From Citrobacter phage phiNP, in the sequence record OR565852: 44,932 bases of DNA, one strand, 5' to 3'. The translations under genes and the position numbers were made by a program. Each line of letters starts with the position of its first letter. The first letter of the stretch is position 1. This document shows positions 3,937 to 44,807 of this stretch, piece by piece. Under the pieces are notes generated by a model, which had not been told where the DNA came from, did not search any database, and saw only the letters and a list, made by a program, of their open reading frames with translations.

Positions 3937-5090
3937 GTCGTGGTACCCGAAAATGTGATATCACCGCGGACGGGGAGTTCACCCGCGCCCAGCTGGATAA
4001 AGGTTCCGGAGGGGCTGTTAATCACAAAGCCCCGGGTTCCATCGATCGCACCGATGGCCAGCGTTAAATCGGACATAAAAATTTTTCCGCCAGGCTCGCC
4101 ATTGTCAAAGAAGACCTCATCAATAGCGCTTTCAATCGCTGCAACCGTGGCCGCGTCAGCATCCGGAATGCCGCCAATATCAAAATTAATCACCTTTTTA
4201 ATCGGAGAACAGACCCAGATAACAGTAGTGGCCGGGCGGCGTGGAAAAATGTAATCAGCGACCCGCAACTGGTCACCAGTAGCCTTGCCATACGGGTATT
4301 GTTCCTTTGTCGCTACCCCGTCAGTACCAACAGGAAACCCGTTGTTTGAACGATCGGCGCCATCACACATGATATAGACACCAACACTGTTAGCCCCCAT
4401 CAGTCGCGGCGCCACCCAGGCACGGGTAATGCCTGCCACCTCCAGCGCCCAACGTCTGTAATCGTCCGCGTTCCCGCCCTGTGATTCGCTCTGATACGCC
4501 AGCAATCCTCGCTGTCGGAAAGCTTCCCCATCTTCAATATCGGCCCCGCCGGTGGCGGCCTCCAGCAGTATCAGCGCGCTTTCAACGCCCGCAATGTTGG
4601 TATCCAGCGTCAGACGGGTGCCGCTGTCAGCATTTCCTGCCGATCCGCCTCCGCTCACATCCTCCGTAATATCAGAGAGCACCGCTGTGACCGGCACCGT
4701 ACCGGTACCATCAGTACCGATTTTCAGCCCGGCATCGGTGGTGTACTGGTATCCGTCAGAACGATTCAGGATGGAGCCCGCCGGAATAATCGCCCCGGGG
4801 GTACCGGTTGCCTGACAGGCTGGCGAACGGGCTGCGCTGGCCGCCTTGCGGAATACCTTCTTCAACGCCATCCACTGCGCCAGATACTCCCCCGTTGCGG
4901 TAAAGGGAATGGACTGCTTCGCGATGTAGTCCAGATAGGCATAATGCAGATGGGACATTCCGGCATCCATATCCGCCAGAACACGCAGGTTCGAAAATCG
5001 CAACAACGCACCGACGCTTTTCAGCTCGGTTTGCAGGAACTGCCGGTTTCGCTGACGCAGTTCACTCAGGGTGTCTCGTTTAAACGGCAT
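3933..5090 (-). CDS. Baseplate J-like protein (Mu gp47 family)
   Basis: Size, position and sequence character of baseplate wedge J proteins; ATGA-type coupling with both neighbours. Confidence 0.8.
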   Translation of the reverse strand: MPFKRDTLSELRQRNRQFLQTELKSVGALLRFSNLRVLADMDAGMSHLHYAYLDYIAKQSIPFTATGEYLAQWMALKKVFRKAASAARSPACQATGTPGAIIPAGSILNRSDGYQYTTDAGLKIGTDGTGTVPVTAVLSDITEDVSGGGSAGNADSGTRLTLDTNIAGVESALILLEAATGGADIEDGEAFRQRGLLAYQSESQGGNADDYRRWALEVAGITRAWVAPRLMGANSVGVYIMCDGADRSNNGFPVGTDGVATKEQYPYGKATGDQLRVADYIFPRRPATTVIWVCSPIKKVINFDIGGIPDADAATVAAIESAIDEVFFDNGEPGGKIFMSDLTLAIGAIDGTRGFVINSPSGTFIQLGAGELPVRGDITFSGTTT

Positions 5091-5532
5091 TCTTTAACTG
5101 CTCCCATACCCAGTAAAATTTGATTTCCTGCTGGCCGTCACCGTCCGGCGAACTCAGGCGAACAATCAGGTTAAGGCGCGCCGGCCATATGATTTGCGCC
5201 TCCACCTGAATATCCCCCACCACACCATCAGATTTCAGCCAGGCCAGTGCCTCCAGCGCGTATTCCTCCGCCCTGACAGCAACACGGGTCGTTAATTTTT
5301 CGCGGCGCAGCAGCCACAGGCGGGAGCCCATCGCCTGAGCCTCTCCGGAATCTCCCCACCATCCCCGGCGGTCAGTGCCTTCATAGTCATCGTCGGCACG
5401 CGCCAGGCGGTCAGTGAACAGGCTGATAATCACCGCTGTCTGGAGGTCATTACCCGACGCCAGTGCGCCAGCGGTGATCCCCCAGTCAGCGTGCATGGCG
5501 TCAGCGTCCCAGAATGATGAAACGTCACTCAT
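5080..5532 (-). CDS. GP46-like baseplate protein (Mu gp46 family)
   Basis: Lies between the V-like and J-like genes; LQTAVIISLFTD motif. Confidence 0.65.
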   Translation of the reverse strand: MSDVSSFWDADAMHADWGITAGALASGNDLQTAVIISLFTDRLARADDDYEGTDRRGWWGDSGEAQAMGSRLWLLRREKLTTRVAVRAEEYALEALAWLKSDGVVGDIQVEAQIIWPARLNLIVRLSSPDGDGQQEIKFYWVWEQLKNAV

Positions 5533-6113
5533 GTCACCTGCCCCGCGGTTTTCTCACTGGTAATACTGCTGCTGCCACCAGCGACGCCTTTCGTCACATG
5601 GTTGTGACCGTTATATGCGTCGCGTAACTCTTTCAGCGTGCGCGGGTTGCTCTCGCAGTTATCGACAACATCCCCGGTAACCAGCAGCTTCGGCGTGATC
5701 AGCTTTACCTGCTCTGTCGCTGTGACCGTCAGGTTTCTGGCGTTATTCACCGTCACATCCTGTCCGTTCGCCTCAACAGTGATCCCTTTCTCCGTCATCA
5801 GGATATAAAGCCCCCACTGGTTATAAAGGACCGTTTCTCCCGGGTTCAGCCCGGTATGTCGGTGCCCCTGATGGTTGGAGCCAATGATCACCGGGCTGGA
5901 GCGATCGCCCCCCAGGAAAGCCAGTACCACATCAGAGCCCGCAGGCAGCGCGGAAGAAAAGCCAAACTCCGTTATCCGGCGGGCCGTAGCCACCTCCAGC
6001 GGTGTCTGGTACTGCACGCTCTGAACTGTGCCGCCGTCGTTCTGACCCGTCACACGACCAATACCCAACATCCCGGCGACGCGGGTCGCCAGGTGTCTGA
6101 AAAGTTGATTCAT
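5529..6113 (-). CDS. Baseplate assembly protein V / central spike (Mu gp45-like)
   Basis: Gene order and an OB-fold-spike-like sequence. Confidence 0.75.
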   Translation of the reverse strand: MNQLFRHLATRVAGMLGIGRVTGQNDGGTVQSVQYQTPLEVATARRITEFGFSSALPAGSDVVLAFLGGDRSSPVIIGSNHQGHRHTGLNPGETVLYNQWGLYILMTEKGITVEANGQDVTVNNARNLTVTATEQVKLITPKLLVTGDVVDNCESNPRTLKELRDAYNGHNHVTKGVAGGSSSITSEKTAGQVT

Positions 6114-7189
6114 GGATTAAGCCCCGGTATCTGTTGGTAGAAAGCGTAAGGCTGGACGGTAAACGCCTCCGGTGGCATCAGGGACAGCCTGGCGTGCGTT
6201 CCGCCTGAATCCCTGATAAACGTCACCTCGGACAGCAACATTTCCCGATCGGTGACTTTCAGCGCCGGAATATTGACCGGGATCAGCGTATTGGGCTCCC
6301 ACAATTTCCCGGACTTATCCCGCCAGCTGTCAATCGTCACATCCAGTTGCCGGGAACGGCCGTAACGCCGGTTCATCTCCCAGTCGATACACTGCTGCGC
6401 CTGCTGTGACGCCATCAGCGTGCTCTCAACAATCACAATGCGTTTCCGGTAGCGCATTCTGGCCGCCTCCGGATCGCGTGCGGTCGCCAGGGTCACCGAA
6501 TCGTAGGCAGTATCCGGCGCCAGCCCGCTAACCGGGGACAGGCTCATGGATACCCCGACATAATCAGAAAACCGCTCAGCCATTGAGGTTCGGAAATATG
6601 CCTGCTCGATGTTTTCCCCCTGGGCGACACCACTGGCCGCCTTCCGGGTTCCCACCCTGGTCAGCAGCAGATTGCCGTCAGGCTGGTCGTAATACAGCAG
6701 CGCAGACCAGCGGCTGACACGTTCGATGATCTCCTGCGGGGATTCACCCCAGTTGAGTGTGAACTGGGGAACAGCAACCAGATCACTGACATCTGACGAT
6801 ACGGATATGCCGTAATACGAGGCCAGACGTGAAGCGATATCCAGCGCGTTGCCACCGTTAATCACGTTATTCGGCCACTCGGCGGAGCAGTCCACCAGGT
6901 CCTGGCACTTTCCGCGCCCCGTTGCTCTGACTTCATGGCGACTCCGGCTTATCGACGGCTCCCAGTCATCGACATAGCCGGTGATCACCAGGTCGTTACC
7001 GATCCGGATTTCGCAGGACTCCCCCTCCCTGACCAGCTGTTCATCCTGGCTACCGGGGAAATAGTCCATCAGCCCTAGGTCAAAATCAGACGGGAAACGC
7101 TCGATTGCCCGGGTGACCCGCACGGAATCCCAGCCCTCTATTCTTCTGCCTCCCACGGTGAGGGAAACGAGATCGCGGGTTTCAGTCAT
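6110..7189 (-). CDS. Baseplate hub / late control D-like protein (Mu gp44)
   Basis: Gene order; 359 aa, typical for gpD/P family members. Confidence 0.75.
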   Translation of the reverse strand: MTETRDLVSLTVGGRRIEGWDSVRVTRAIERFPSDFDLGLMDYFPGSQDEQLVREGESCEIRIGNDLVITGYVDDWEPSISRSRHEVRATGRGKCQDLVDCSAEWPNNVINGGNALDIASRLASYYGISVSSDVSDLVAVPQFTLNWGESPQEIIERVSRWSALLYYDQPDGNLLLTRVGTRKAASGVAQGENIEQAYFRTSMAERFSDYVGVSMSLSPVSGLAPDTAYDSVTLATARDPEAARMRYRKRIVIVESTLMASQQAQQCIDWEMNRRYGRSRQLDVTIDSWRDKSGKLWEPNTLIPVNIPALKVTDREMLLSEVTFIRDSGGTHARLSLMPPEAFTVQPYAFYQQIPGLNP

Positions 7190-34149: not shown

Positions 34150-34703
34150 GCGGATTTCTCCATACACATAGATTTATCTGCCACGACGCCCGGAGCTGCA
34201 CACTCGCGGGCGTCACTCTTTTCTGGCTGGCAGAAAACGCGGAAAAGCAGCGTTAAATGCTCCTGCCACTTAGCCATGACCTGATAGCTGTTCTCCTCTA
34301 TCTGCGCCCTTTCGGCATCGTCAATCACGCCGTCTGCTGTCGCCTTTCGCACATACTGAGAATGACGCCCGATCCATTCGACCGACTCCATCAGACGTTG
34401 ATTGATGTCGGCGTTATCAACTTCTTCCACGTCCGCCAGCGGCACGAATACGCCGTTTGAATGGCGCGCTATGGCATCGGCGATGTGGTTTGAGCCACCA
34501 GCGCTCTGCAGCACCATTGCCCAGCCCAGCGGGAAAACCTGGTCGCCGTCGGCACGCAGGCGGTTAAAGAGCGAATTTTCCGTAACATCAAGCCATTCAG
34601 CCGCCTCGGCGTATCCGCCAGGCAGTTCAGCGATCGTTTTTTTAATTGCTGCCACCAGCCAGGCTGGCTGACGTTCAACTTTCCACTGCGGTTCGTTACC
34701 CAC
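34146..34703 (-). CDS. CII-like / YmfL-like early regulatory protein (function uncertain)
   Basis: Second gene of the PR operon; no firm motif recognised. Confidence 0.4.
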
Positions 34704-34959
34704 GGCTATCCCCTTTTTTCTGTGGTGCAGCTTTAACGCTCTTCCCTGTAGGGTTTACATAACGCTGCGGGTACAAAATCTGGAGTTCGTCTATCTGGCC
34801 CGAATAAAACTTCACCAGCCTTTCAGCTACATCGAGAGAAGCAATTTGCTGTCCCCGTTCAATTCGGCTTAAGTTGGCAGGATCAATGCCCACCAAGTTG
34901 GCGACATATGAGAGTGTTAAATTTTGCGATTTTCGCAAATTTCTTAGCGGTGATTGCAT
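34696..34959 (-). CDS. cro: Cro-like XRE-family HTH repressor
   Basis: HTH LTLSYVANLVGIDPANLSRIERG; divergent from cI. Confidence 0.8.
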   Translation of the reverse strand: MQSPLRNLRKSQNLTLSYVANLVGIDPANLSRIERGQQIASLDVAERLVKFYSGQIDELQILYPQRYVNPTGKSVKAAPQKKGDSRG

Positions 34960-35050
34960 AAAGCCCCCTATAATTGCGCAATACGCATATTAATGTGTAC
35001 TTACGACTTGCGCAAGTTGCTTTGCATATCACGCAAAAACAACCTGTAAT
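34924..35050. promoter_or_regulatory. Divergent PR/PRM control region with TTGC-N7-GCAA operators
   Basis: Operator-like 15-mers at 34924-34938, 34974-34988, 35008-35022 and 35022-35036. PR on the minus strand: TTGCGC (35010-35015), 17 nt, TAATAT (34987-34992). PRM: TTTGCA (35021-35026), 18 nt, TGTAAT (35045-35050), which places the start site at or next to the cI ATG. Confidence 0.6.
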
Positions 35051-35057
35051 AGAACGC

Positions 35058-35753
35058 ATGAACATAGGAAACCGCATTAGAGAATTGCGCCTCGCAAGAG
35101 GCATGAAAATTTCTGACCTTGCTGATGCTGTTGGTATTGACGGCGCGAACGTTTCTCGCGTAGAGACCGGTAAGCAAAAGTCATTTACTGAACAATCGCT
35201 TAGCAAATATGCAAATGCGCTCGGCGTTGATGTTGCTGAACTCTTTACACCTTCCATAAATGAAACTACTGTATACAAATCCAGTGAGAATAATCCAGTT
35301 TATGGAGAGGATGACCCGGTGTTTAGAGTCGAAATGCTTGATGTCAGTGCCAGCGCTGGCATGGGTTTTATACAGGGTAGTGATGTCATCGATGTCATCA
35401 GATCGATTGAATACAACAGCGAACGGGCGGTCGCTCTGTTTGGTGGAAGAACGCCAGATACCGTTAAAGTGATCAACGTTCGCGGTGATAGTATGGCTGA
35501 TACTATAGAGCCAGGTGACCTAATCTTTGTTGATGTTTCAATTAATGAATTTGATGGTGATGGCATTTATGTGTTTGGTTTTGACGAGAAAATTTATGTC
35601 AAACGGTTACAGATGATTCCCGATAAAATTCTGGTGATATCTGATAATCCCAAATACAGAGAGTGGTCAGTTGATCAATCTAACGAAGACCGTTTTTATG
35701 TGTTTGGGAAAGTGATGCTTAGCCAATCACAAGCAATGAAAAGACACGGATAA
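35058..35753 (+). CDS. cI: CI repressor (XRE HTH + S24 LexA-like autopeptidase)
   Basis: MNIGNRIRELRLARGMKISDLA... HTH; C-terminal VRGDSM...KR S24 motifs. Confidence 0.9.
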   Translation: MNIGNRIRELRLARGMKISDLADAVGIDGANVSRVETGKQKSFTEQSLSKYANALGVDVAELFTPSINETTVYKSSENNPVYGEDDPVFRVEMLDVSASAGMGFIQGSDVIDVIRSIEYNSERAVALFGGRTPDTVKVINVRGDSMADTIEPGDLIFVDVSINEFDGDGIYVFGFDEKIYVKRLQMIPDKILVISDNPKYREWSVDQSNEDRFYVFGKVMLSQSQAMKRHG

Positions 35754-35769
35754 CCCCTCTCCAGCAAAG

Positions 35770-35795
35770 AGCCGCCGCTTAATGGCGGCTTTTTC
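35770..35795 (+). terminator. Intrinsic terminator of cI
   Basis: AGCCGCC (35770-35776) / GGCGGCT (35784-35790) followed by TTTTT. Confidence 0.7.
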
Positions 35796-35807
35796 ATACC
35801 CTAAATA

Positions 35808-35859
35808 TTGCGAATTACGCATTTTATTACTTGCGTAATTCGCAATATTATTTTATCTT
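35808..35859 (+). promoter_or_regulatory. OL/PL-like region: two inverted operator copies overlapping a rightward promoter
   Basis: TTGCGAATTACGCAT (35808-35822) and TTGCGTAATTCGCAA (35831-35845). -35 TTGCGT (35831-35836), 17 nt, -10 TATCTT (35854-35859). Confidence 0.55.
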
Positions 35860-35865
35860 CATTCC

Positions 35866-36583
35866 ATCAACAGCGAACAGGCAGGACGCCCACGAAGTAG
35901 CCGCCCGGGGCATATGAAGGCCGGGATGATTCGCTCAGAACATGGCGAAAGCCGAAAGACTTGAAGGCGGTTTTCTCAGGTTGCGCGCTAAAGCATAGCG
36001 GGGAGAACCTGGGGCGGAGAGCAAACCCCGCGATTCAGGACATGATCGCCTGTGCATACCAATAAGCCGTCTGGCAGCGTAACTGCTCTTTACATTGGCA
36101 CCGGCAAAGTGGCGCCGCTGAACCGAGGCTGGTGGATCGTAAAACCGCAGGAGCAAGCAACAAACGGTAGTCCGTATGGAGAAAAATCCGTTGAGTAAGG
36201 GGCCTGGCCGGAACCGTAACCGGCACACAACGATGAGAGCATTGACGAGCAAGGTTTAATGTCCGGTTCGATTCCAGACACCACGAAGCGGTGGCAATGG
36301 GCAGGGAAAAGGTCCGTTCAATTCGGACACCGGCAGTGCTCTCTTCGTTGTGGAGTATACAAGCGTATTGCAGCGCCGGTCGACGCAAAGACCCGTAAAT
36401 CGACTGAGCCGTAGTTACTGGCGGCCAATACCAAAACAGAGCGGCGGGAAGTAAGTAGGGGTAGCGCCCTGGTGTCACAACCAAATCACGCTTAGGACCG
36501 TGATAACCGTAGTACCAATATTGCTGTGTGTAGTCTTGGCGGTACCAGTTCCATCCCTTGAAGTCCCTGGTACCGCCCTTTTT
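35866..36583 (+). ncRNA. Candidate large (about 0.7 kb) structured non-coding RNA transcribed from PL; unclassified
   Basis: No + strand ORF of 60 aa or more. Coding-like G+C, many short perfect helices and a defined promoter and terminator. The ends are inferred, not measured. Confidence 0.35.
36538..36583 (+). terminator. Strong intrinsic terminator inside the early-left leader
   Basis: Perfect 11-bp stem GGCGGTACCAG (36538-36548) / CTGGTACCGCC (36567-36577), followed by CTTTTT. Confidence 0.7.
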
Positions 36584-36745
36584 ACACAAGAGACAAGAGC
36601 ATCACCGGGCGACGGGCTCATAACCCAATCCACCCGGGCGTTAAGGAAGTGGTCTTCTCACCCATGACCAGCGCGCAGGTGCTCTTTTCTGTTGTGTATG
36701 GAGAAACTTACGGCGGCGGCAGCCGCTTAACCGAGAGGAAATGCT

Positions 36746-37117
36746 ATGAGCAATGATCGCATGACCGTAGTACCCGATTTTCTGGGTGAGCTGGACGCCG
36801 GCGTGTTCATGAACAAAATCGCCGCCGCGCTTAATACCACCGCGCTGGGTGTTCTAAATAACGGCACCAAAGGCAAAGTTGTTCTCACCTTTGATTTTGA
36901 GCGTATGGGGAATTCCGTTGAAGAGAAGCGCGTCAAGATCAAGCACAAGCTGAATTACAGCACCCCGACGCCGCGCGGTAAAGCCTCCGAAGAGGACACC
37001 ACTGAAACGCCAATGTGGGTTAACAAAGGCGGCAAGCTCACCATCCTGCAGGAGGATCAGGGGCAATTGTTCAGTATCAACGGCGCCACAGACGGAAAGC
37101 TTAAAGCGGCTCAGTGA
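36746..37117 (+). CDS. Hypothetical early protein (possibly YfdP-like, by synteny)
   Basis: RBS GAGGAA; first ORF of the early-left operon. Confidence 0.6.
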   Translation: MSNDRMTVVPDFLGELDAGVFMNKIAAALNTTALGVLNNGTKGKVVLTFDFERMGNSVEEKRVKIKHKLNYSTPTPRGKASEEDTTETPMWVNKGGKLTILQEDQGQLFSINGATDGKLKAAQ

Positions 37118-39918: not shown

Positions 39919-40112
39919 AGATCCGCTGTTTTTTCGGGCTTCATAAATGGGTGCTGTTCAAGAAAGAGCTTCACCCATATCAATCTCTTAACGGACTGCA
40001 GCCAACTATTATTTTCCACTATGGGTGTAATGGCTGCGGCAAGACCAGAACAGAGACTCGCGAAGAGGGTTACTGGCATTCTTTTAAACCATCAGATTTG
40101 GAGCACATGTAA
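39915..40112 (+). CDS. Small Cys-containing hypothetical protein
   Basis: GLHKW...CNGCGK; coupled to its neighbours. Confidence 0.5.
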   Translation: MKIRCFFGLHKWVLFKKELHPYQSLNGLQPTIIFHYGCNGCGKTRTETREEGYWHSFKPSDLEHM

Positions 40113-40679
40113 TGAACCACCTTATGATCGACCTAGAAACGATGGGTAATAAGCCTGCTGCGCCAATTGTCGCGATCGGCGCTGTGTTTTTCGACCCGAA
40201 AAGCGGTGAGCTGGGCGCCGAGTTCTATGTGGCCGTCAACCTCGCCAGCGCCATGGATCAGGGTGCTACCCCTGACGGTGACACGATCCTGTGGTGGCTG
40301 AAGCAATCAGCGGAAGCTCGCGCTGCTATTTGTACCGACGACACTAAGAACATCGCCGAAGCGCTCTCCGAGCTTAGGTCATTTATTAGCCGTAACTCTG
40401 ACAAACCGCGTTATCTGAAAGTCTGGGGCAATGGCGCCAATTTCGACAACGTTATTTTGCGTTCAGCCTATGAACGCGCCGGCCAAACCTGCCCGTGGCA
40501 ATTCTGGAACGACAGCGACGTGCAGCACCATGGTGCTGCTCGGCAAACAGCTTGGTTTCGATCCAAAGCGCGATATGCCATTTGATGGTGTAGCCCACAA
40601 CGCACTGGCCGATGCCCACCACCAGGTGAAATATGTATCGGCAATCTGGCAGCGACTATTGCCCGCCAGCGCCGAATAA
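40112..40679 (+). pseudogene. DnaQ-like 3'-5' exonuclease interrupted by a 1-nt frameshift
   Basis: ORF 40112-40585 carries MIDLETMG...GNGANFD. The last motif (HNALADA) sits in ORF 40431-40679, in another frame. The frames switch at about 40520-40530. Confidence 0.7.
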
Positions 40680-40709: not shown

Positions 40710-40928
40710 ATGGAGAAATTTATGCTGAGCCTCGATTGTGTTCCCATCTCAACTTATTGCAAAGAGACAGGCGAAACTCCTGATGCGATCAACAAGCGCG
40801 TACAGCGCGGTGTGTGGCGTGAAGGGGTTCAGGTGCTGAAAGTCGAAGGCGTTAAGGAGAGATGGATAGATCTTAGTGAGGTTGCAAAATGGGCCAGACA
40901 GAATCGCCTAAACTCCCGCGCGGCGTAA
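40710..40928 (+). CDS. xis: Excisionase-like protein (DUF1233-type)
   Basis: Small basic wHTH-like protein whose 3' end overlaps the int start. Confidence 0.65.
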   Translation: MEKFMLSLDCVPISTYCKETGETPDAINKRVQRGVWREGVQVLKVEGVKERWIDLSEVAKWARQNRLNSRAA

Positions 40929-42055
40929 CCATCAGGAAACATCGCAACGGTCAAACCATCAATATTACTTTTACATATAAAGGGGTGAAATGCCGTGAGC
41001 CTCTTTCTAATCTGGACGTAACCCCTAAAAATATCAAATACGCCGAGCGCACACTCGGCGAAATCCATAACAAGATCGAAAGGGGAACGTTTGTTTACGC
41101 GGAATACTTTCCCCGTTCTACCCGATTAAAAATTTTCGGAAACGCTGCCGCAGGAAAAACGGTGAAGATGTATCTGGATGAGTATCTGGTGATCTGCGAA
41201 ACGAGGAAGCTTTCCCCTTCGACAATAGGCGGGTACAAGAAATGCCGAAGCGCATTGTCATCACTTCATATTTATCCTGCAAGTGAGTTGACGCCGGCTG
41301 CATTGAAGACATGGATCCAGAACCAGAAAACGACATTGAAGACCATCCGAAACCAGTTGTCATTCCTGCGTTCTGCATTGGATGAAGCAGTGACAGATGG
41401 TGTGCTTCAGATTAACCCTGTATCTCTGGTAACAGCCTCACGATACCAAAGTGATAAATCAGAGGCAGAAAGTAGTTATGTGGTTGATCCGCTATCACCA
41501 GCAGAAGTTGATGCTTTGCTCTCTGCTACTGGCAATAAGCAGTGGGAGAATCTTTTCCGGTTCGCGATACAAACAGGGCTGCGTAGTTCCGAATTGTGTG
41601 CTCTTCGTTGGCGTGATATCGACTTTGTAGGGAAGACTGCCCATATCCAGAGCGCCAGTGTTGTTGGTGTGATCAAAGGGACCAAGACAAAAGCAGGTAC
41701 CCGTAAAGTTGAACTCACAGATGAAGCAATGTCGGCTCTGATAAATCAGAAACCGTTCACGTTCATGAAGGGCGCTACTGTCTTTGAGGATCCAAAGACC
41801 AATAAGCCGTGGGCAAGTGCTGATGCAATTAGAAAAAAGGCATGGGTGCCGACATTGCGAAAGGCTGGTATTCGGTACAGAAACCCATATCAGACTAGAC
41901 ATACATTCGCCACATGCCATATCAGCCGGGGAACAAACTTGTTCTGGCTTGCGACTCAAATGGGACATAAAGGCCCAGAGATGCTTTTCCGTCACTACGG
42001 CTCATATCTGAAGGAATATGATGGACAAACAAGCCTGAAGAAGATAAAAATATAA
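40889..42055 (+). CDS. int: Tyrosine integrase with N-terminal arm-binding domain
   Basis: LPRGVTIRKHRNGQTINITFTYKG arm domain. Catalytic LRSSELCALRWRDI, TRHTFAT and GHKGPEMLFRHYGSY motifs. Confidence 0.9.
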   Translation: MGQTESPKLPRGVTIRKHRNGQTINITFTYKGVKCREPLSNLDVTPKNIKYAERTLGEIHNKIERGTFVYAEYFPRSTRLKIFGNAAAGKTVKMYLDEYLVICETRKLSPSTIGGYKKCRSALSSLHIYPASELTPAALKTWIQNQKTTLKTIRNQLSFLRSALDEAVTDGVLQINPVSLVTASRYQSDKSEAESSYVVDPLSPAEVDALLSATGNKQWENLFRFAIQTGLRSSELCALRWRDIDFVGKTAHIQSASVVGVIKGTKTKAGTRKVELTDEAMSALINQKPFTFMKGATVFEDPKTNKPWASADAIRKKAWVPTLRKAGIRYRNPYQTRHTFATCHISRGTNLFWLATQMGHKGPEMLFRHYGSYLKEYDGQTSLKKIKI

Positions 42056-42112
42056 TCCATGTCTGAATTATTGGCCGCAATTTGTGGCCATTTCATGGAA
42101 CAAGGTACAAAC

Positions 42113-43846
42113 ATGGCAAATCCAATAACCAAACTAAAAAAAATAAACGTTGTAAAATTTCGAGGACTAAAAAATATAAATATAGAATTTGGTTCGCGAC
42201 TAACTGTTATTTGTGGTAAAAACGGCACATCTAAATCGACAATTCTTGGTATTATCGCCCAAATTTTTAGTTTTACAAAAGATCTGTCTAAGAACCCCGA
42301 GGTTGATTTAACACAATATAAGACATTAACTAATGGCACCTTCAAGTCAGCTTTCAGTGAACATTTTAGACTTTCAGAACAATTTGATACTGCAGGTTCA
42401 ATGGAAGTCAGGATTAGTGTTTATGATGGTGCATCTAACAAACATCTTGAAAAGCTAACATTGGGTCTATACAGCTCCAGTGACAGGGATAAATCAAGGC
42501 CAATAGTCAGGGGCAATGATTCCATACCGGGGAAAAACCAAAGTAGAAACGTCACTCATCCAGTTATTTTTCTAAGCTTAGCAAGACTTCTCCCTATTAC
42601 TCTACGGACTGATTACTCAACAAGGGATGTTCAGTATATCAATGAAAACGCAGATGATATAAGAATAATGAGCAATCAACTCTTACTTAAGAATAATGGG
42701 TGCTCAGTAACAGCCACGAAAGGGACGATCGATTCAATGGTCGTACACGGCGATAATTACGACCATCAATCAGTCTCTGTTGGTGAGGATAATGTTGGAC
42801 AATTAATTCAAGCAATATTTTCCTTTAAAAGGCTAAAAGAACTTTATGACGATTATCATGGAGGTATTTTATTAATTGATGAAGCGGACGCAGGTCTTTT
42901 CCCTGCTGCTCAGTTAGAATTAATTGACATTCTAGCTAAAGCAGCTAAAAAATATGACTTGCAAATAATCATGACTTCTCACTCACCATTAATAATAGAA
43001 GATATTTTCAATCGTTCCAAACAAGATGCCAACGGATTTAAAACAATATATCTGACAGATACTTATGGTGATATTAAAACAAAAGACAATCTATCATGGG
43101 CCGATATCAATGCTGATTTGCATGTTGAAACTGTAAAAATAAATGATGAGATTAGCCTTCCAAAAGCCAACGTATATTTTGAAGATAAAGAAGGCTTCGA
43201 TTTTTTCAAACAATTGATAATTGATAGAAGAATAAACAGAATATTGAATCCATTAGGAAACATAAATATTAGTTGTACTGCTATCCTAGATTTAATGGCT
43301 AGAAAAGTCCCTGAGTTTACTAACAAAAGCCTAGTTGTCTTAGACGGTGATGTTGCTCTCGATAACAGTGACAATGCTAAAAAAGCGAAAAAAGAGAGAA
43401 GCTTATGCTTGCTTCCAGGCATTCTTCCCCCAGATCAAATGATTTTTGAATTCTTATATAACTTACCTCCAGACGATATATATTGGAACAATAAAAATAG
43501 ATTTACAAAAGCAGTATTTATGAAAATAACAAAAGACATAATTACAACATTAAAAATAAGTAACTATCCTATTGATTTACTAAATTCTATAGAGAATTAT
43601 AAAAAATCAAACAAAAACCATGGCGGAGTGGTTAGAAAACTATTTAAAGATTTTGTCCATACGCCTGAGTTCCTAGCACAAGTAAAAGGGCGAGTTAAAG
43701 ATAATCCTTATCGATATTGGGTCGAGAAACACCCCGTAGAATCCGATAATTTCAAGCATGAATTAATCAAAAACCTTAAAATTATTATGACAAATGGACA
43801 TGGCGTTGACTCTGCTACCATCACTTCGTATCTGTCTGGCAACTAA
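42113..43846 (+). CDS. OLD-family-like protein: N-terminal ABC/AAA_15-type ATPase plus C-terminal Toprim-like domain
   Basis: Walker A GKNGTSKST, signature-like SVGEDNVGQ, Walker B ILLIDEADAGLFP, H-loop TSHSP, then YFEDKEG ... VVLDGDVA (Glu + DxD). The start could instead be 42059 or 42095. Confidence 0.7.
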   Translation: MANPITKLKKINVVKFRGLKNINIEFGSRLTVICGKNGTSKSTILGIIAQIFSFTKDLSKNPEVDLTQYKTLTNGTFKSAFSEHFRLSEQFDTAGSMEVRISVYDGASNKHLEKLTLGLYSSSDRDKSRPIVRGNDSIPGKNQSRNVTHPVIFLSLARLLPITLRTDYSTRDVQYINENADDIRIMSNQLLLKNNGCSVTATKGTIDSMVVHGDNYDHQSVSVGEDNVGQLIQAIFSFKRLKELYDDYHGGILLIDEADAGLFPAAQLELIDILAKAAKKYDLQIIMTSHSPLIIEDIFNRSKQDANGFKTIYLTDTYGDIKTKDNLSWADINADLHVETVKINDEISLPKANVYFEDKEGFDFFKQLIIDRRINRILNPLGNINISCTAILDLMARKVPEFTNKSLVVLDGDVALDNSDNAKKAKKERSLCLLPGILPPDQMIFEFLYNLPPDDIYWNNKNRFTKAVFMKITKDIITTLKISNYPIDLLNSIENYKKSNKNHGGVVRKLFKDFVHTPEFLAQVKGRVKDNPYRYWVEKHPVESDNFKHELIKNLKIIMTNGHGVDSATITSYLSGN

Positions 43847-43854
43847 TTGATTGA

Positions 43855-43891
43855 AAAGGGCTTTATATGATGGCCATAAAGCCCTTTTTTT
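43855..43891 (+). terminator. Intrinsic terminator between the ATPase and methylase genes
   Basis: Perfect 12-bp stem AAAGGGCTTTAT / ATAAAGCCCTTT followed by a T run. Confidence 0.8.
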
Positions 43892-43925
43892 GATATACTT
43901 TAGACTTGACATTTAGAGGTATCAT

Positions 43926-44807
43926 ATGCGTTTTAACACCCCACTTCGTTATCCTGGCGGCAAAGGCAAGCTTTCTAATTTCATGCTTCGGATTATTGAA
44001 GATAATAAGCTTTCGCCTATACATTATGCAGAGCCATATGCTGGGGGTGCTGGTTTAGCGCTGAAGCTGTTACACTTAAATGTAGCTGAAAAAATCATTC
44101 TTAATGATATTAATATCTCAGTTTATGCTTTTTGGCACAGTGTATTAAATAATGCAGATCATTTATGTGCTTTAATTGAGGATACTGAAGTCACAATGGA
44201 TGAGTGGTTCAAACAGAAAGAAATAATTAATCATCCAAGAGACCATGATATGCTAACAATTGGTTTTTCTACCTTTTTTCTTAATAGAACAAATCGTTCT
44301 GGAATATTAAAAGGCGGTGTAATTGGTGGTAAAAATCAAGAAGGGCAATGGAAACTTGATGCTCGTTATAACAAGAGCGATTTAATTTCTCGGATTCAGA
44401 AAATATCAAAAAACCGTGAAAGAATAGATTTGTATAACATGGATGCAATTGATTTCATAAAAAAAATAGTTGTTCAATTGCCTAAAAAATCATTAACATA
44501 TTTAGATCCGCCATATTATATAAAAGGTAAGGGATTATATATCAATCATTATGAACATAGTGACCATGTTAATGTTGCAAAAGTAGTGCAGCATGATATT
44601 AAAACACCGTGGATTGTTTCTTACGATAACACTCCTGAGATCCAAGGTATGTATAAGGCATCATCATTAGTGTATGGAATAAACTACAGTGCTCAAGATC
44701 GATATAAGGGCTCAGAAGTGATGTTCTTCAGTAAACGATTGAAAGTCTTTAAAACCGATGATCCAACTAAGGTAAAAGCACCTACCAATAAAAATGCTAT
44801 GAGCTAG
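43926..44807 (+). CDS. D12-class (alpha) N6-adenine DNA methyltransferase, Dam-like
   Basis: PLRYPGGK, EPYAGGAG (FxGxG) and LDPPYY motifs in alpha-class order. Confidence 0.9.
   Translation: MRFNTPLRYPGGKGKLSNFMLRIIEDNKLSPIHYAEPYAGGAGLALKLLHLNVAEKIILNDINISVYAFWHSVLNNADHLCALIEDTEVTMDEWFKQKEIINHPRDHDMLTIGFSTFFLNRTNRSGILKGGVIGGKNQEGQWKLDARYNKSDLISRIQKISKNRERIDLYNMDAIDFIKKIVVQLPKKSLTYLDPPYYIKGKGLYINHYEHSDHVNVAKVVQHDIKTPWIVSYDNTPEIQGMYKASSLVYGINYSAQDRYKGSEVMFFSKRLKVFKTDDPTKVKAPTNKNAMS

Follow-up and report, generated by a model that had tools for sequence, protein, structure and literature searches.

The region between cI and the early-left genes

Citrobacter phage phiNP (sequence record OR565852) was analysed as a single stretch of 44,932 nucleotides (nt), which we call the window and whose positions serve as coordinates throughout. 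By its gene content, it is a lambdoid prophage of the SfV/ST64B/e14 type. Our subject is the block at 35754-36745, between the repressor gene cI and the first gene of the early-left operon, which is non-coding. We consider it, with a probability of roughly 60%, to be the untranslated leader of the repressor-controlled early-left (PL) operon in a prophage that lacks an N gene, a leader made up of modular structured RNAs that would operate in the manner proposed below. Hundreds of Enterobacterales prophages carry such modules, e14 of Escherichia coli K-12, SfV and ST64B among them; the related loci that were compared carry L-numbers.

The cI gene is LexA-like (Peptidase_S24 and helix-turn-helix matches), lies on the plus strand and ends at 35753. 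On the minus strand, a cro-like gene (34696-34959) is followed by a CII (CP76)-like gene. On the other side of the block, the first early-left gene begins with the ATG at 36746 on the plus strand and matches phrog_204, which makes it YfdP-like. It is followed by YfdQ-like (DUF2303) and YfdR-like genes and, further on, by a methylase gene and the integrase gene (40889-42055). The early-left operon also includes, between these last two, a gene for an Rv2179c-like 3′-5′ exoribonuclease (40112-40585), which deserves mention given the heavily structured leader upstream in the same operon. Downstream of the integrase gene, at 42059-44807, are genes for an AAA_15/AAA_21 (AbiEii-like) ATPase and a D12 adenine methyltransferase, which look like defence or moron cargo beside the attachment site.

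Within the block, the longest plus-strand open reading frames (ORFs) encode 55, 51 and 48 amino acids (aa), and the only long ones are two overlapping ORFs of 105 and 184 aa on the minus strand. Neither of the latter has a Pfam match, and their sole PHROG matches cover stretches of 30 and 21 aa that fall exactly on the RNA modules B and C2 described below; neither these ORFs nor the small plus-strand ones are supported as genes by the Pfam and PHROG searches. It might be argued that the block is nevertheless decayed or misread coding DNA, whether as frameshifted genes or as small proteins encoded on one strand or the other, since relatives have been annotated here with “hypothetical protein” ORFs on both strands, the e14 gene ymfH overlaps the corresponding DicF-like and C2 region, and two short PHROG matches do exist. 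We regard this as extremely improbable. The Pfam search of the block’s ORFs was empty, the PHROG matches are confined to 21 to 30 aa over B and C2, conservation takes the form of compensatory base-pair changes and indels of 1 to 7 nt rather than codon periodicity, and the genuine cargo ORFs of relatives sit between modules and not inside them. The two families concerned, phrog_36251 and phrog_33599, match short stretches of the spurious ORFs over B and C2 (36203-36292 and 36575-36637) and were probably built from misannotated RNA.

The left end of the block carries the elements expected of a repressor-controlled operon. An intrinsic terminator of the cI transcript, recognised as a GC-rich hairpin (35774-35789) followed by TTTTT, occupies 35774-35794 on the plus strand, and behind it are two inverted operator copies, the left operator OL (35808-35822 and 35831-35845), with the pattern TTGCR-N5-CGCAA and of the same 15-mer type as at the right operator OR. 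With zero or one mismatch, this pattern clusters only at 35808-35845 and at 34924-35036, where OR comprises four sites. The putative PL promoter (35831-35866, plus strand) has a −35 element TTGCGT at 35831-35836, a −10 element TATCTT at 35854-35859 and a predicted start at about 35866. A promoter with a score of 8 of 12 or better stands at the same spacing to module A, the first module of the leader, in 133 of 169 distinct relatives. Its −10 element ends mostly 12 to 15 nt before A, and in 105 of the 133 promoter-bearing contexts it ends 11 to 15 nt before the outer stem (P1) of A. The phiNP promoter sits exactly where relatives of other immunity types carry strong promoters, and its position is, on this comparison, credible. 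At the other end, an 11-base-pair stem (36538-36548/36567-36577) is followed by CTTTTT at 36578-36583.

A preliminary description of this DNA had anticipated much of this picture. It had reported no plus-strand ORF of 60 aa or more between the cI stop and 36746, had judged the minus-strand ORFs unlike proteins, and had placed the integrase gene beyond a terminator located about 0.7 kilobases (kb) from the promoter; the ORF lengths, the database searches, the integrase coordinates and the terminator end at 36583 all agree with it. Its sequence of a cI terminator and two inverted operator copies was recovered, and every one of the helices it listed (P1 of module A, the GGC-GAAA-GCC hairpin of module S1 and the hairpins of module B) is real, with compensatory changes in relatives. 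Its promoter TTGCGT-17-TATCTT holds as to sequence and position, given the equally spaced promoters of relatives, but it is a weak one, matching the consensus at only 7 of 12 positions, which is the reason why a consensus promoter scan misses it. The broader suggestion of an operator-controlled early promoter and of rightward transcription into a structure-rich block is likewise supported by comparison of the sequences.

Control by a C4 antisense RNA with isrK, of the type associated with immI antirepressors, was not seen in the part of the phiNP window scanned with Rfam. Both RNAs are found above the Rfam gathering score on the PR side of some relatives, in L001 (316-504, minus strand) and L004 (330-518, minus strand), which are SfV and F1055.

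Modular composition of the leader

BLAST searches of the block against phages and complete E. coli genomes, together with local comparisons and scans of sequence collections for short conserved patterns, gave a consistent picture. BLAST recovers pieces of the block, never the entire block, at 75 to 95% identity in 113 phage records, and such pieces are present in 1779 of 5426 complete E. coli genomes, while the short patterns give several hundred loci. Thus, a third of complete E. coli genomes hold pieces of a conserved structured leader that annotation either ignores or overlays with spurious ORFs. Three blocks of the region are common to SfV, F1055, Flotzy, Kp4866-6 and an E. coli prophage, in which they are set apart by unrelated cargo, for instance SfV orf33 or a “ClpX C4 zinc-finger” gene.

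Six modules can be delimited in phiNP, all on the plus strand: A (35872-35935), S1 (35945-36140), B (36226-36352), S2 (36355-36478), a DicF-like element (36513-36583) and C2 (36584-36697). Among 92 distinct loci chosen by the presence of A, 40 combine the DicF-like element with C2, 16 have C2 only, nine have all three of B, the DicF-like element and C2, and 17 lack every one of these; the distance from A to C2 in these 92 loci ranges from 217 to 1718 nt. C2 can also stand directly behind the promoter without A, as in L135 and L185, and S1 and S2 each recur in other combinations. Since the modules assort independently, a single co-evolving fold of 0.7 kb is ruled out, and on this comparative evidence the region is a set of at least six independently assorting structured-RNA modules and not one RNA fold.

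The preliminary description had proposed precisely such a unit, a discrete RNA of about 0.7 kb running from PL to the terminator, and had likened it to large ornate RNAs such as GOLLD and ROOL or to a put element enlarged tenfold. In phiNP itself, the modules are contiguous and every one of them is structured, and the minimum-free-energy fold of the entire leader is better than those of all 20 shuffled sequences; the z-score of the whole-region fold, however, is only −1.75. In relatives, the modules are separated and recombined, and protein genes intervene between them; every module has a terminal helix of its own that closes it; and we saw no long-range covarying pairs between modules. None of the large-RNA families of Rfam is matched, and the only element of the size and position of put is the 64-nt module A, which is not a put element. 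A single large RNA unit is therefore very unlikely, and its GOLLD-like, ROOL-like and giant-put versions with it.

An Rfam scan, a check proposed in the same description, was run over 35500-37000 (cmscan, E≤1) and gave nothing useful besides a weak match to DicF at 36525-36578, and no module reaches the gathering score of any Rfam 15 family. A scan of 17 related loci at gathering scores returned only K-12 DicF, C4 and isrK elsewhere, and tRNAs. Alignment of homologues, which the description had put forward as a further check, was more informative and revealed conservation with covariation for A, S1, B, S2 and C2. These five appear to be undescribed motifs, and the DicF-like part is a new member of a known family.

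Module S1, of about 195 nt, is closed by GCGA/TCGT and contains the invariant GGC-GAAA-GCC hairpin as well as a boxA-like 9-mer, TGCTCTTTA, at 36084-36092. It occurs in 23 of the retrieved loci at 75 to 92% identity, and 14 of the 39 consensus pairs in its alignment (A7, 16 sequences) have compensatory changes. Module S2 is a structured spacer between B and the DicF-like element and is found in about a dozen of the retrieved loci at 77 to 92% identity; its alignment (A8) has 30 consensus pairs, four of them with compensatory changes, and further covarying hairpins are visible by eye.

The DicF-like element and the tRNA-like modules

What the preliminary description called a textbook terminator does have a real stem, although the body of a DicF-family small RNA (sRNA) had gone unrecognised in it, as the covariance models indicate. 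The element (36513-36583) consists of the 11-base-pair stem with a pyrimidine-rich loop and the CTTTTT tail, and the mature 5′ end of the sRNA is probably near 36525. We built a covariance model, R2, from 27 related blocks from which K-12 dicF was excluded. This model scores the phiNP element at 73 bits, and it finds the authentic dicF gene of the K-12 prophage Qin (L279 2871-2940) at 35.6 bits (E of 5e-7) and an unannotated copy in e14 at 71 bits. Furthermore, the spacer between ydfC and dicB in Qin carries motifs that flank module B in other phages. Taken together, the match of the model to dicF and the flanking motifs shared with Qin make the phiNP leader the counterpart of the dicBF leader that bears dicF, and the terminator element, on the evidence of the model, is related to DicF. 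DicF has unrecognised relatives, one of them in e14.

The likeness to dicBF (Qin; Rfam family RF00039) extends to place and body plan. Both elements lie in the non-coding part of a PL-like operon under repressor control and are co-directional with the early genes, and both have a UUGGCGG...CCGCC terminator hairpin with a pyrimidine-rich loop and a U tail. DicF is cut from the polycistronic dicBp RNA, with RNase III giving a 190-nt species and RNase E the 53-nt product (PMC10448788). In phiNP, the element likewise stands in the leader of a PL-like operon and ends in a Rho-independent terminator, with long stems upstream that are candidate RNase III substrates and would suit processing of the kind demonstrated for DicF (PMC10448788). 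The two differ in that the phiNP terminator stem is longer (11 base pairs) and in that the phiNP sRNA is set among A, S1, B, S2 and C2, which Qin lacks or retains only as remnants. The loop sequences also differ, so the targets may differ as well. DicF itself depends on Hfq and stops cell division when it is expressed. The loop of the relative L023 contains AGUUUCUCUCC, all 11 nt of which can pair with the ftsZ ribosome-binding site GGAGAGAAACU.

In e14 of K-12 (L280), A is located at 6105-6181 on the minus strand upstream of ymfJ, the DicF-like element at 5196-5266 on the minus strand, and a degenerate C2-like sequence at about 5060-5195. The DicF-like element and C2 overlap ymfH, annotated as a “putative protein”, which may be a mis-called ORF; K-12 may have a second DicF-like RNA, under SOS control. 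Our search of the literature for an sRNA at ymfH/ymfJ of e14 returned nothing relevant.

Modules B and C2, which flank S2 and the DicF-like element, resemble tRNAs. In B, a tRNA-like cloverleaf is enclosed by a 20-pair stem, P1, and is made up of a T-arm-like hairpin (36261-36279), a variable hairpin (36281-36294, CCAC..GTGG) and a second T-arm-like hairpin (36312-36328). The two T-arm-like hairpins match the T-arm consensus (GGTTCGATTCC and GTTCAATTC), and the alignment of B (A5, 30 sequences) is 93.1% paired, with compensatory change in ten pairs. C2 consists of a 17-pair stem P1 (36584-36601/36680-36697), a stem P2 (36605-36609/36633-36637) and a variable hairpin (36638-36674). Its alignment (A6, 41 sequences) is 98.7% paired in P1, with four compensatory pairs, and 98% paired in P2, with two. 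One-sided changes in both modules nearly always give G-U pairs and not mismatches, which identifies the plus strand as the one that is transcribed into the structured RNA.

The hairpin of C2 at 36613-36626 (CGGGCTCATAACCC) is identical to positions 29-42 of metZ, the E. coli initiator tRNA. These 14 nt correspond to the anticodon loop with its CAU and to three G-C pairs, and none of 300 shuffled sequences reached a 14-nt identity; the anticodon-arm motif is kept in copies of C2 that were found through P1 anchors alone. ARAGORN finds no tRNA genes in the window, and the Rfam tRNA model has no match at E≤1 in 35500-37000; the tRNA resemblance is limited to T-arm-like and anticodon-arm-like parts. 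In some relatives, B stands directly before genuine tRNA-Arg(UCU) genes (L229 4402-4611, minus strand; L262 8573-8781, plus strand), and in L244 (6506-6917, plus strand) a tRNA-like Rfam match directly follows B, with a tRNA-Arg about 200 nt downstream. Because the B stem ends exactly where the tRNA starts in such contigs, cleavage by RNase P would trim the 3′ end of B. A further tRNA-like element, of 127 nt, was observed in L075 (1077-1203, minus strand); it scores 43.9 bits with the Rfam tRNA model, has a large insertion and an acceptor stem UGUGGUU/AACCACA, and is not called by ARAGORN. It lies in a non-coding leader of 1.15 kb together with A, S1, a P1-type stem that holds a different cargo, a DicF-like element and C2. 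The initiator arm, the T-arms of B, the L075 element and the adjacency of B to tRNA genes make the leader look derived from tRNA genes, parts of which it may have kept as processing signals, mimics or decoys. Known bacterial RNAs that imitate tRNA include the Y-RNA-like YrlA and the thrS operator; B resembles them in having T-arm hairpins within a long closing stem and C2 in its copy of an anticodon stem-loop, while B differs in having two T-arms and no D-arm, and Rfam gives no match to YrlA or tRNA. No Ro/Rsr context was noted among the ORFs examined around the block, for which no specific search was made.

The anticodon arm of the initiator tRNA is copied exactly a short distance ahead of the first early gene, which suggests that phage and host interact here in a new way. 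In lambdoid phages, anti-defence genes are concentrated in the early-left region, and initiator tRNA is cut by VapC of Shigella and Salmonella. With this background, one could propose that B and C2 act in trans by mimicking tRNA, as decoys or ligands for tRNA-directed host factors, and that the leader is mainly an anti-defence or host-takeover cassette. Candidate partners would include anticodon nucleases of the VapC type, methionyl-tRNA synthetase, initiation factor 3 or the P site of the 30S subunit, tRNA-modifying enzymes and RNase P. Such a role would be consistent with the conserved initiator arm in independently found copies of C2, the cloverleaf of B with its two consensus T-arms, the fuller element of L075 and the real tRNA genes directly after B. 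The argument is purely inferential, the anticodon stem has just three pairs, and the resemblances could equally be leftovers of tRNA genes reused as processing signals. We consider this proposal unlikely, though it is compatible with our reading of the block as a processed PL leader and does not exclude it.

TGCTCT(C/T)TT, a string that resembles boxA, opens the 3′ strand of P1 in both B and C2; in C2 it reads TGCTCTTT (36680). A possible interpretation is that the 3′ half of C2 contains a nut-like signal, composed of TGCTCTTT and hairpins with a UGCAG or GGCAG loop (P4 in relatives, P5 at 36712-36727), that is read by an N analogue or a host protein, in which case A would be employed elsewhere. 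The stem of P5 varies in relatives while its UGCAG/GGCAG loop is kept, as in boxB; C2 stands directly between the terminator and the first gene, being the sole leader element behind the promoter in L135 and L185; and the 8-mer TGCTCTTT occurs only four times on the plus strand of the 45 kb, two of them in the leader. The boxA-like strand, however, is paired in P1, where it covaries with the opposite strand away from the boxA consensus and often reads TGCCCTT, which points to selection on pairing and not on boxA identity. In addition, C2 sits downstream of the terminator that would need to be suppressed, and a search for proteins with an arginine-rich motif was empty. A nut-like function of C2 is thus distinctly improbable.

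Between C2 and the first early gene (36700-36748) lie GGAGAAAC, the hairpin with the (G)GCAG loop at 36712-36727, the Shine-Dalgarno sequence GAGAGGAAA and the ATG at 36746. Two copies of a 14-mer, TGTATGGAGAAAC, are present, one just after C2 (36694-36707, plus strand) and the other where the CII-like gene of the PR operon ends (34155-34168, minus strand). Each precedes a ATGAGCAAT start, and the 14-mer probably represents a shared ribosome-binding context. We also noted that CACAAC(A) strings, which correspond to the target consensus of the R1 seed of GcvB, recur in the leader (36226-36232 and 36473-36479) and in the 5′ strands of the P1 stems of B and C2 in relatives, and that the GU-rich 3′ strands of these stems resemble GcvB R1, so that a sponge activity may be possible. 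The prophage anti-sRNA AgvB uses this same target consensus, although AgvB and AsxR are encoded at the PR′ moron site, unlike the phiNP leader (PMC4104026).

Module A and its proposed role in passage of the early terminator

Module A is a 64-nt RNA at the 5′ end of the leader, with an outer stem P1 (35872-35877/35930-35935, AGCGAA/TTCGCT) and a hairpin with its stem at 35904-35908/35921-35925. It is present as a single copy in the window. Its joining regions are near-invariant while its stems covary. In the alignment of 116 distinct sequences (A4), 95.8% of cells are paired and 142 are double-change cells; none of 500 shuffles was as good, and no slid register came close. Two of the hairpin pairs each occur in all four Watson-Crick forms, and in L283 and L305 (Leclercia and Silvania) P1 has been wholly replaced, from GCGAA/TTCGC to CCACC/GGTGG. 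Judging from promoter positions, A is nearly always the first element to be transcribed, about 5 to 9 nt after a sigma70 start. A 28-nt core is exact in 51 contig stretches, nearly all of which come from Enterobacterales genera as varied as Escherichia, Xenorhabdus, Yersinia and Erwinia, and this invariance across genera points to a conserved host ligand.

In 44 of 208 distinct loci (21%), A is followed after 2 to 43 nt by a canonical boxA (GCTCTTTAA), and no such boxA is present in the 1500 nt upstream of A in any of the 208. The boxA is usually preceded by a small hairpin, as in the boxB-boxA order of rrn operons. When loci are chosen by C2 alone, A is upstream in 73 of 100. As had been stated in the preliminary description, the phiNP window has no N-like gene: a search for ORFs of 45 to 170 aa with an N-terminal arginine-rich motif gave no plausible candidate. 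The same appears to hold for relatives. mEp460 carries A, the DicF-like unit and C2, and has no annotated N; it comes from a collection described as Nus-dependent (PMC11893012). LLS, the closest relative that has been studied, is reported to lack N as well, and a put-like mechanism was only guessed for it (PMC12315714). The Gp17/nut system of mEpimmI (PMC11893012) belongs to a different phage group.

Several known systems invite comparison. The put sites of HK022 (putL and putR) and the putL-like site of HK639 are of about 70 nt, similar to the 64 nt of A, and like A they stand a few nt after the PL start in lambdoid phages without N that have terminators before their early genes; a few short strings are also common to both (CGAAC.G, GGAUGA). 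We nevertheless rejected A as a member of the put family, as put consists of two tandem stem-loops whereas in A an outer P1 encloses two hairpins to form a closed junction, and as the covariance model of A (R1) has no match to HK022 or HK639 put at E≤1. The action of put, which renders RNA polymerase resistant to terminators in cis through the zinc-binding domain of β′, is Nus-independent, and A is often coupled to boxA. The rrn antiterminator offers a parallel in the canonical boxA, often preceded by a hairpin, that follows A in 21% of relatives, and rrn operons share with the phiNP leader the combination of boxA-type strings, tRNA-like units and long stems of the RNase III type. With respect to lambda, C2 takes the place of the RNase III hairpin of the N leader, just before the first gene. 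In contrast to rrn and to lambda nutL, phiNP has neither an N protein nor more than near-boxA strings, and A has no counterpart there. As a whole, the system is of a known kind, a processed non-coding leader of a lambdoid early operon.

Because A is transcribed first, has a conserved core, and is linked to boxA and to C2 in phages that lack N, it is, we infer, the best candidate for an N-independent and possibly Nus-assisted antitermination signal, and the antiterminator idea raised in the preliminary description seems plausible for this module only. Alternatively, A might be a 5′ stability element, a riboswitch-like sensor or a binding site for a host factor (Hfq, ProQ, the ribosome or an RNase), with read-through of the terminator being merely leaky. 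In favour of this, the 5′ position and the closed three-way fold of A are what one typically sees in stabilisers and aptamers; its joining regions are near-invariant while its stems covary; 79% of A copies lack an adjacent boxA; and in e14 and mEp460 an ORF follows A directly with no terminator nearby. This alternative would not predict that boxA is found just downstream of A in 44 of 208 loci and upstream in none, and phages without N still have strong intrinsic terminators before essential early genes. We find it unlikely, though by no means negligible.

Under our preferred interpretation, a processed PL leader, PL would fire near 35866 when the cI-like repressor leaves OL, and A would fold first, at about +6 to +70. 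Most transcripts would stop at the DicF-like terminator (36583), giving a precursor of about 0.72 kb. S2 and the DicF-like unit lie between the long P1 stems of B and C2, which are obvious candidates for RNase III sites, and RNase E could trim the products further. Such processing, which is modelled on the pathway established experimentally for DicF in the Qin dicBF operon, would free stable tRNA-like fragments and a DicF-like sRNA of about 60 nt that might regulate host mRNAs, ftsZ among them. Some polymerases must pass the terminator for the early-left genes, including int, to be expressed; A would be the most likely cis element to confer terminator resistance, probably with Nus factors acting on boxA-type sequences and without N.

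A number of observations weigh against this interpretation. All the RNA ends in the phiNP leader are predictions. The DicF-like element scores only 20.5 bits with the Rfam model (36525-36578), compared with a gathering score of 48, and the copies of relatives also fall below it, so that only K-12 dicF passes. The complementarity between the phiNP loop and ftsZ is limited to 8 nt (AUGGAACU, codons 5 to 7), a short match that makes the target of the sRNA uncertain, and duplex energies with ftsZ, compared with those of shuffled sequences, were dropped as evidence because they did not discriminate even for authentic DicF. The folding z-score of the whole region is the modest value given above. The phiNP copy of A, like most others, has no adjacent canonical boxA, and the boxA-like strings of the phiNP leader are only TGCTCTTTA (36084), which is partly in a hairpin stem, and TGCTCTTTT (36680), which is in P1 of C2. 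Finally, A differs from put in both fold and sequence, and, whereas HK022 has putR, a search with filters off revealed no second copy of A in the PR operon.

A bolder version can be put forward tentatively, with the odds clearly against it as a whole: A would belong to a new class of elements in nascent RNA, through which RNA polymerase becomes resistant to terminators without N, either alone or with boxA-bound Nus factors. It would be the missing early antitermination of a very large group of lambdoid prophages without N (e14, SfV, ST64B and those similar to LLS) throughout the Enterobacterales, while the tRNA mimics of the leader, the copy of the initiator anticodon arm included, would act on the tRNA-directed machinery of the host. 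Even in its more limited form, a role of A as the early antitermination device of lambdoid prophages without N is the most valuable lead of this analysis. It offers a concrete candidate for the passage of early terminators in e14, the Shigella serotype-converting phages and ST64B, which belong to the many common enterobacterial prophages that have no N gene, and, being often coupled to boxA, it also offers one for the mechanism that the 2025 publication on LLS could only guess to be put-like. As e14 carries A, the hypothesis can be tested in E. coli K-12.

An additional leader motif, GTTCCGCC..CCTGGCG..AAGGGCAAA, precedes ydfA-like genes and sometimes flanks A; it was observed before or after A in L283, L305, L309 and L303, and upstream of ydfA in L279, which is Qin.

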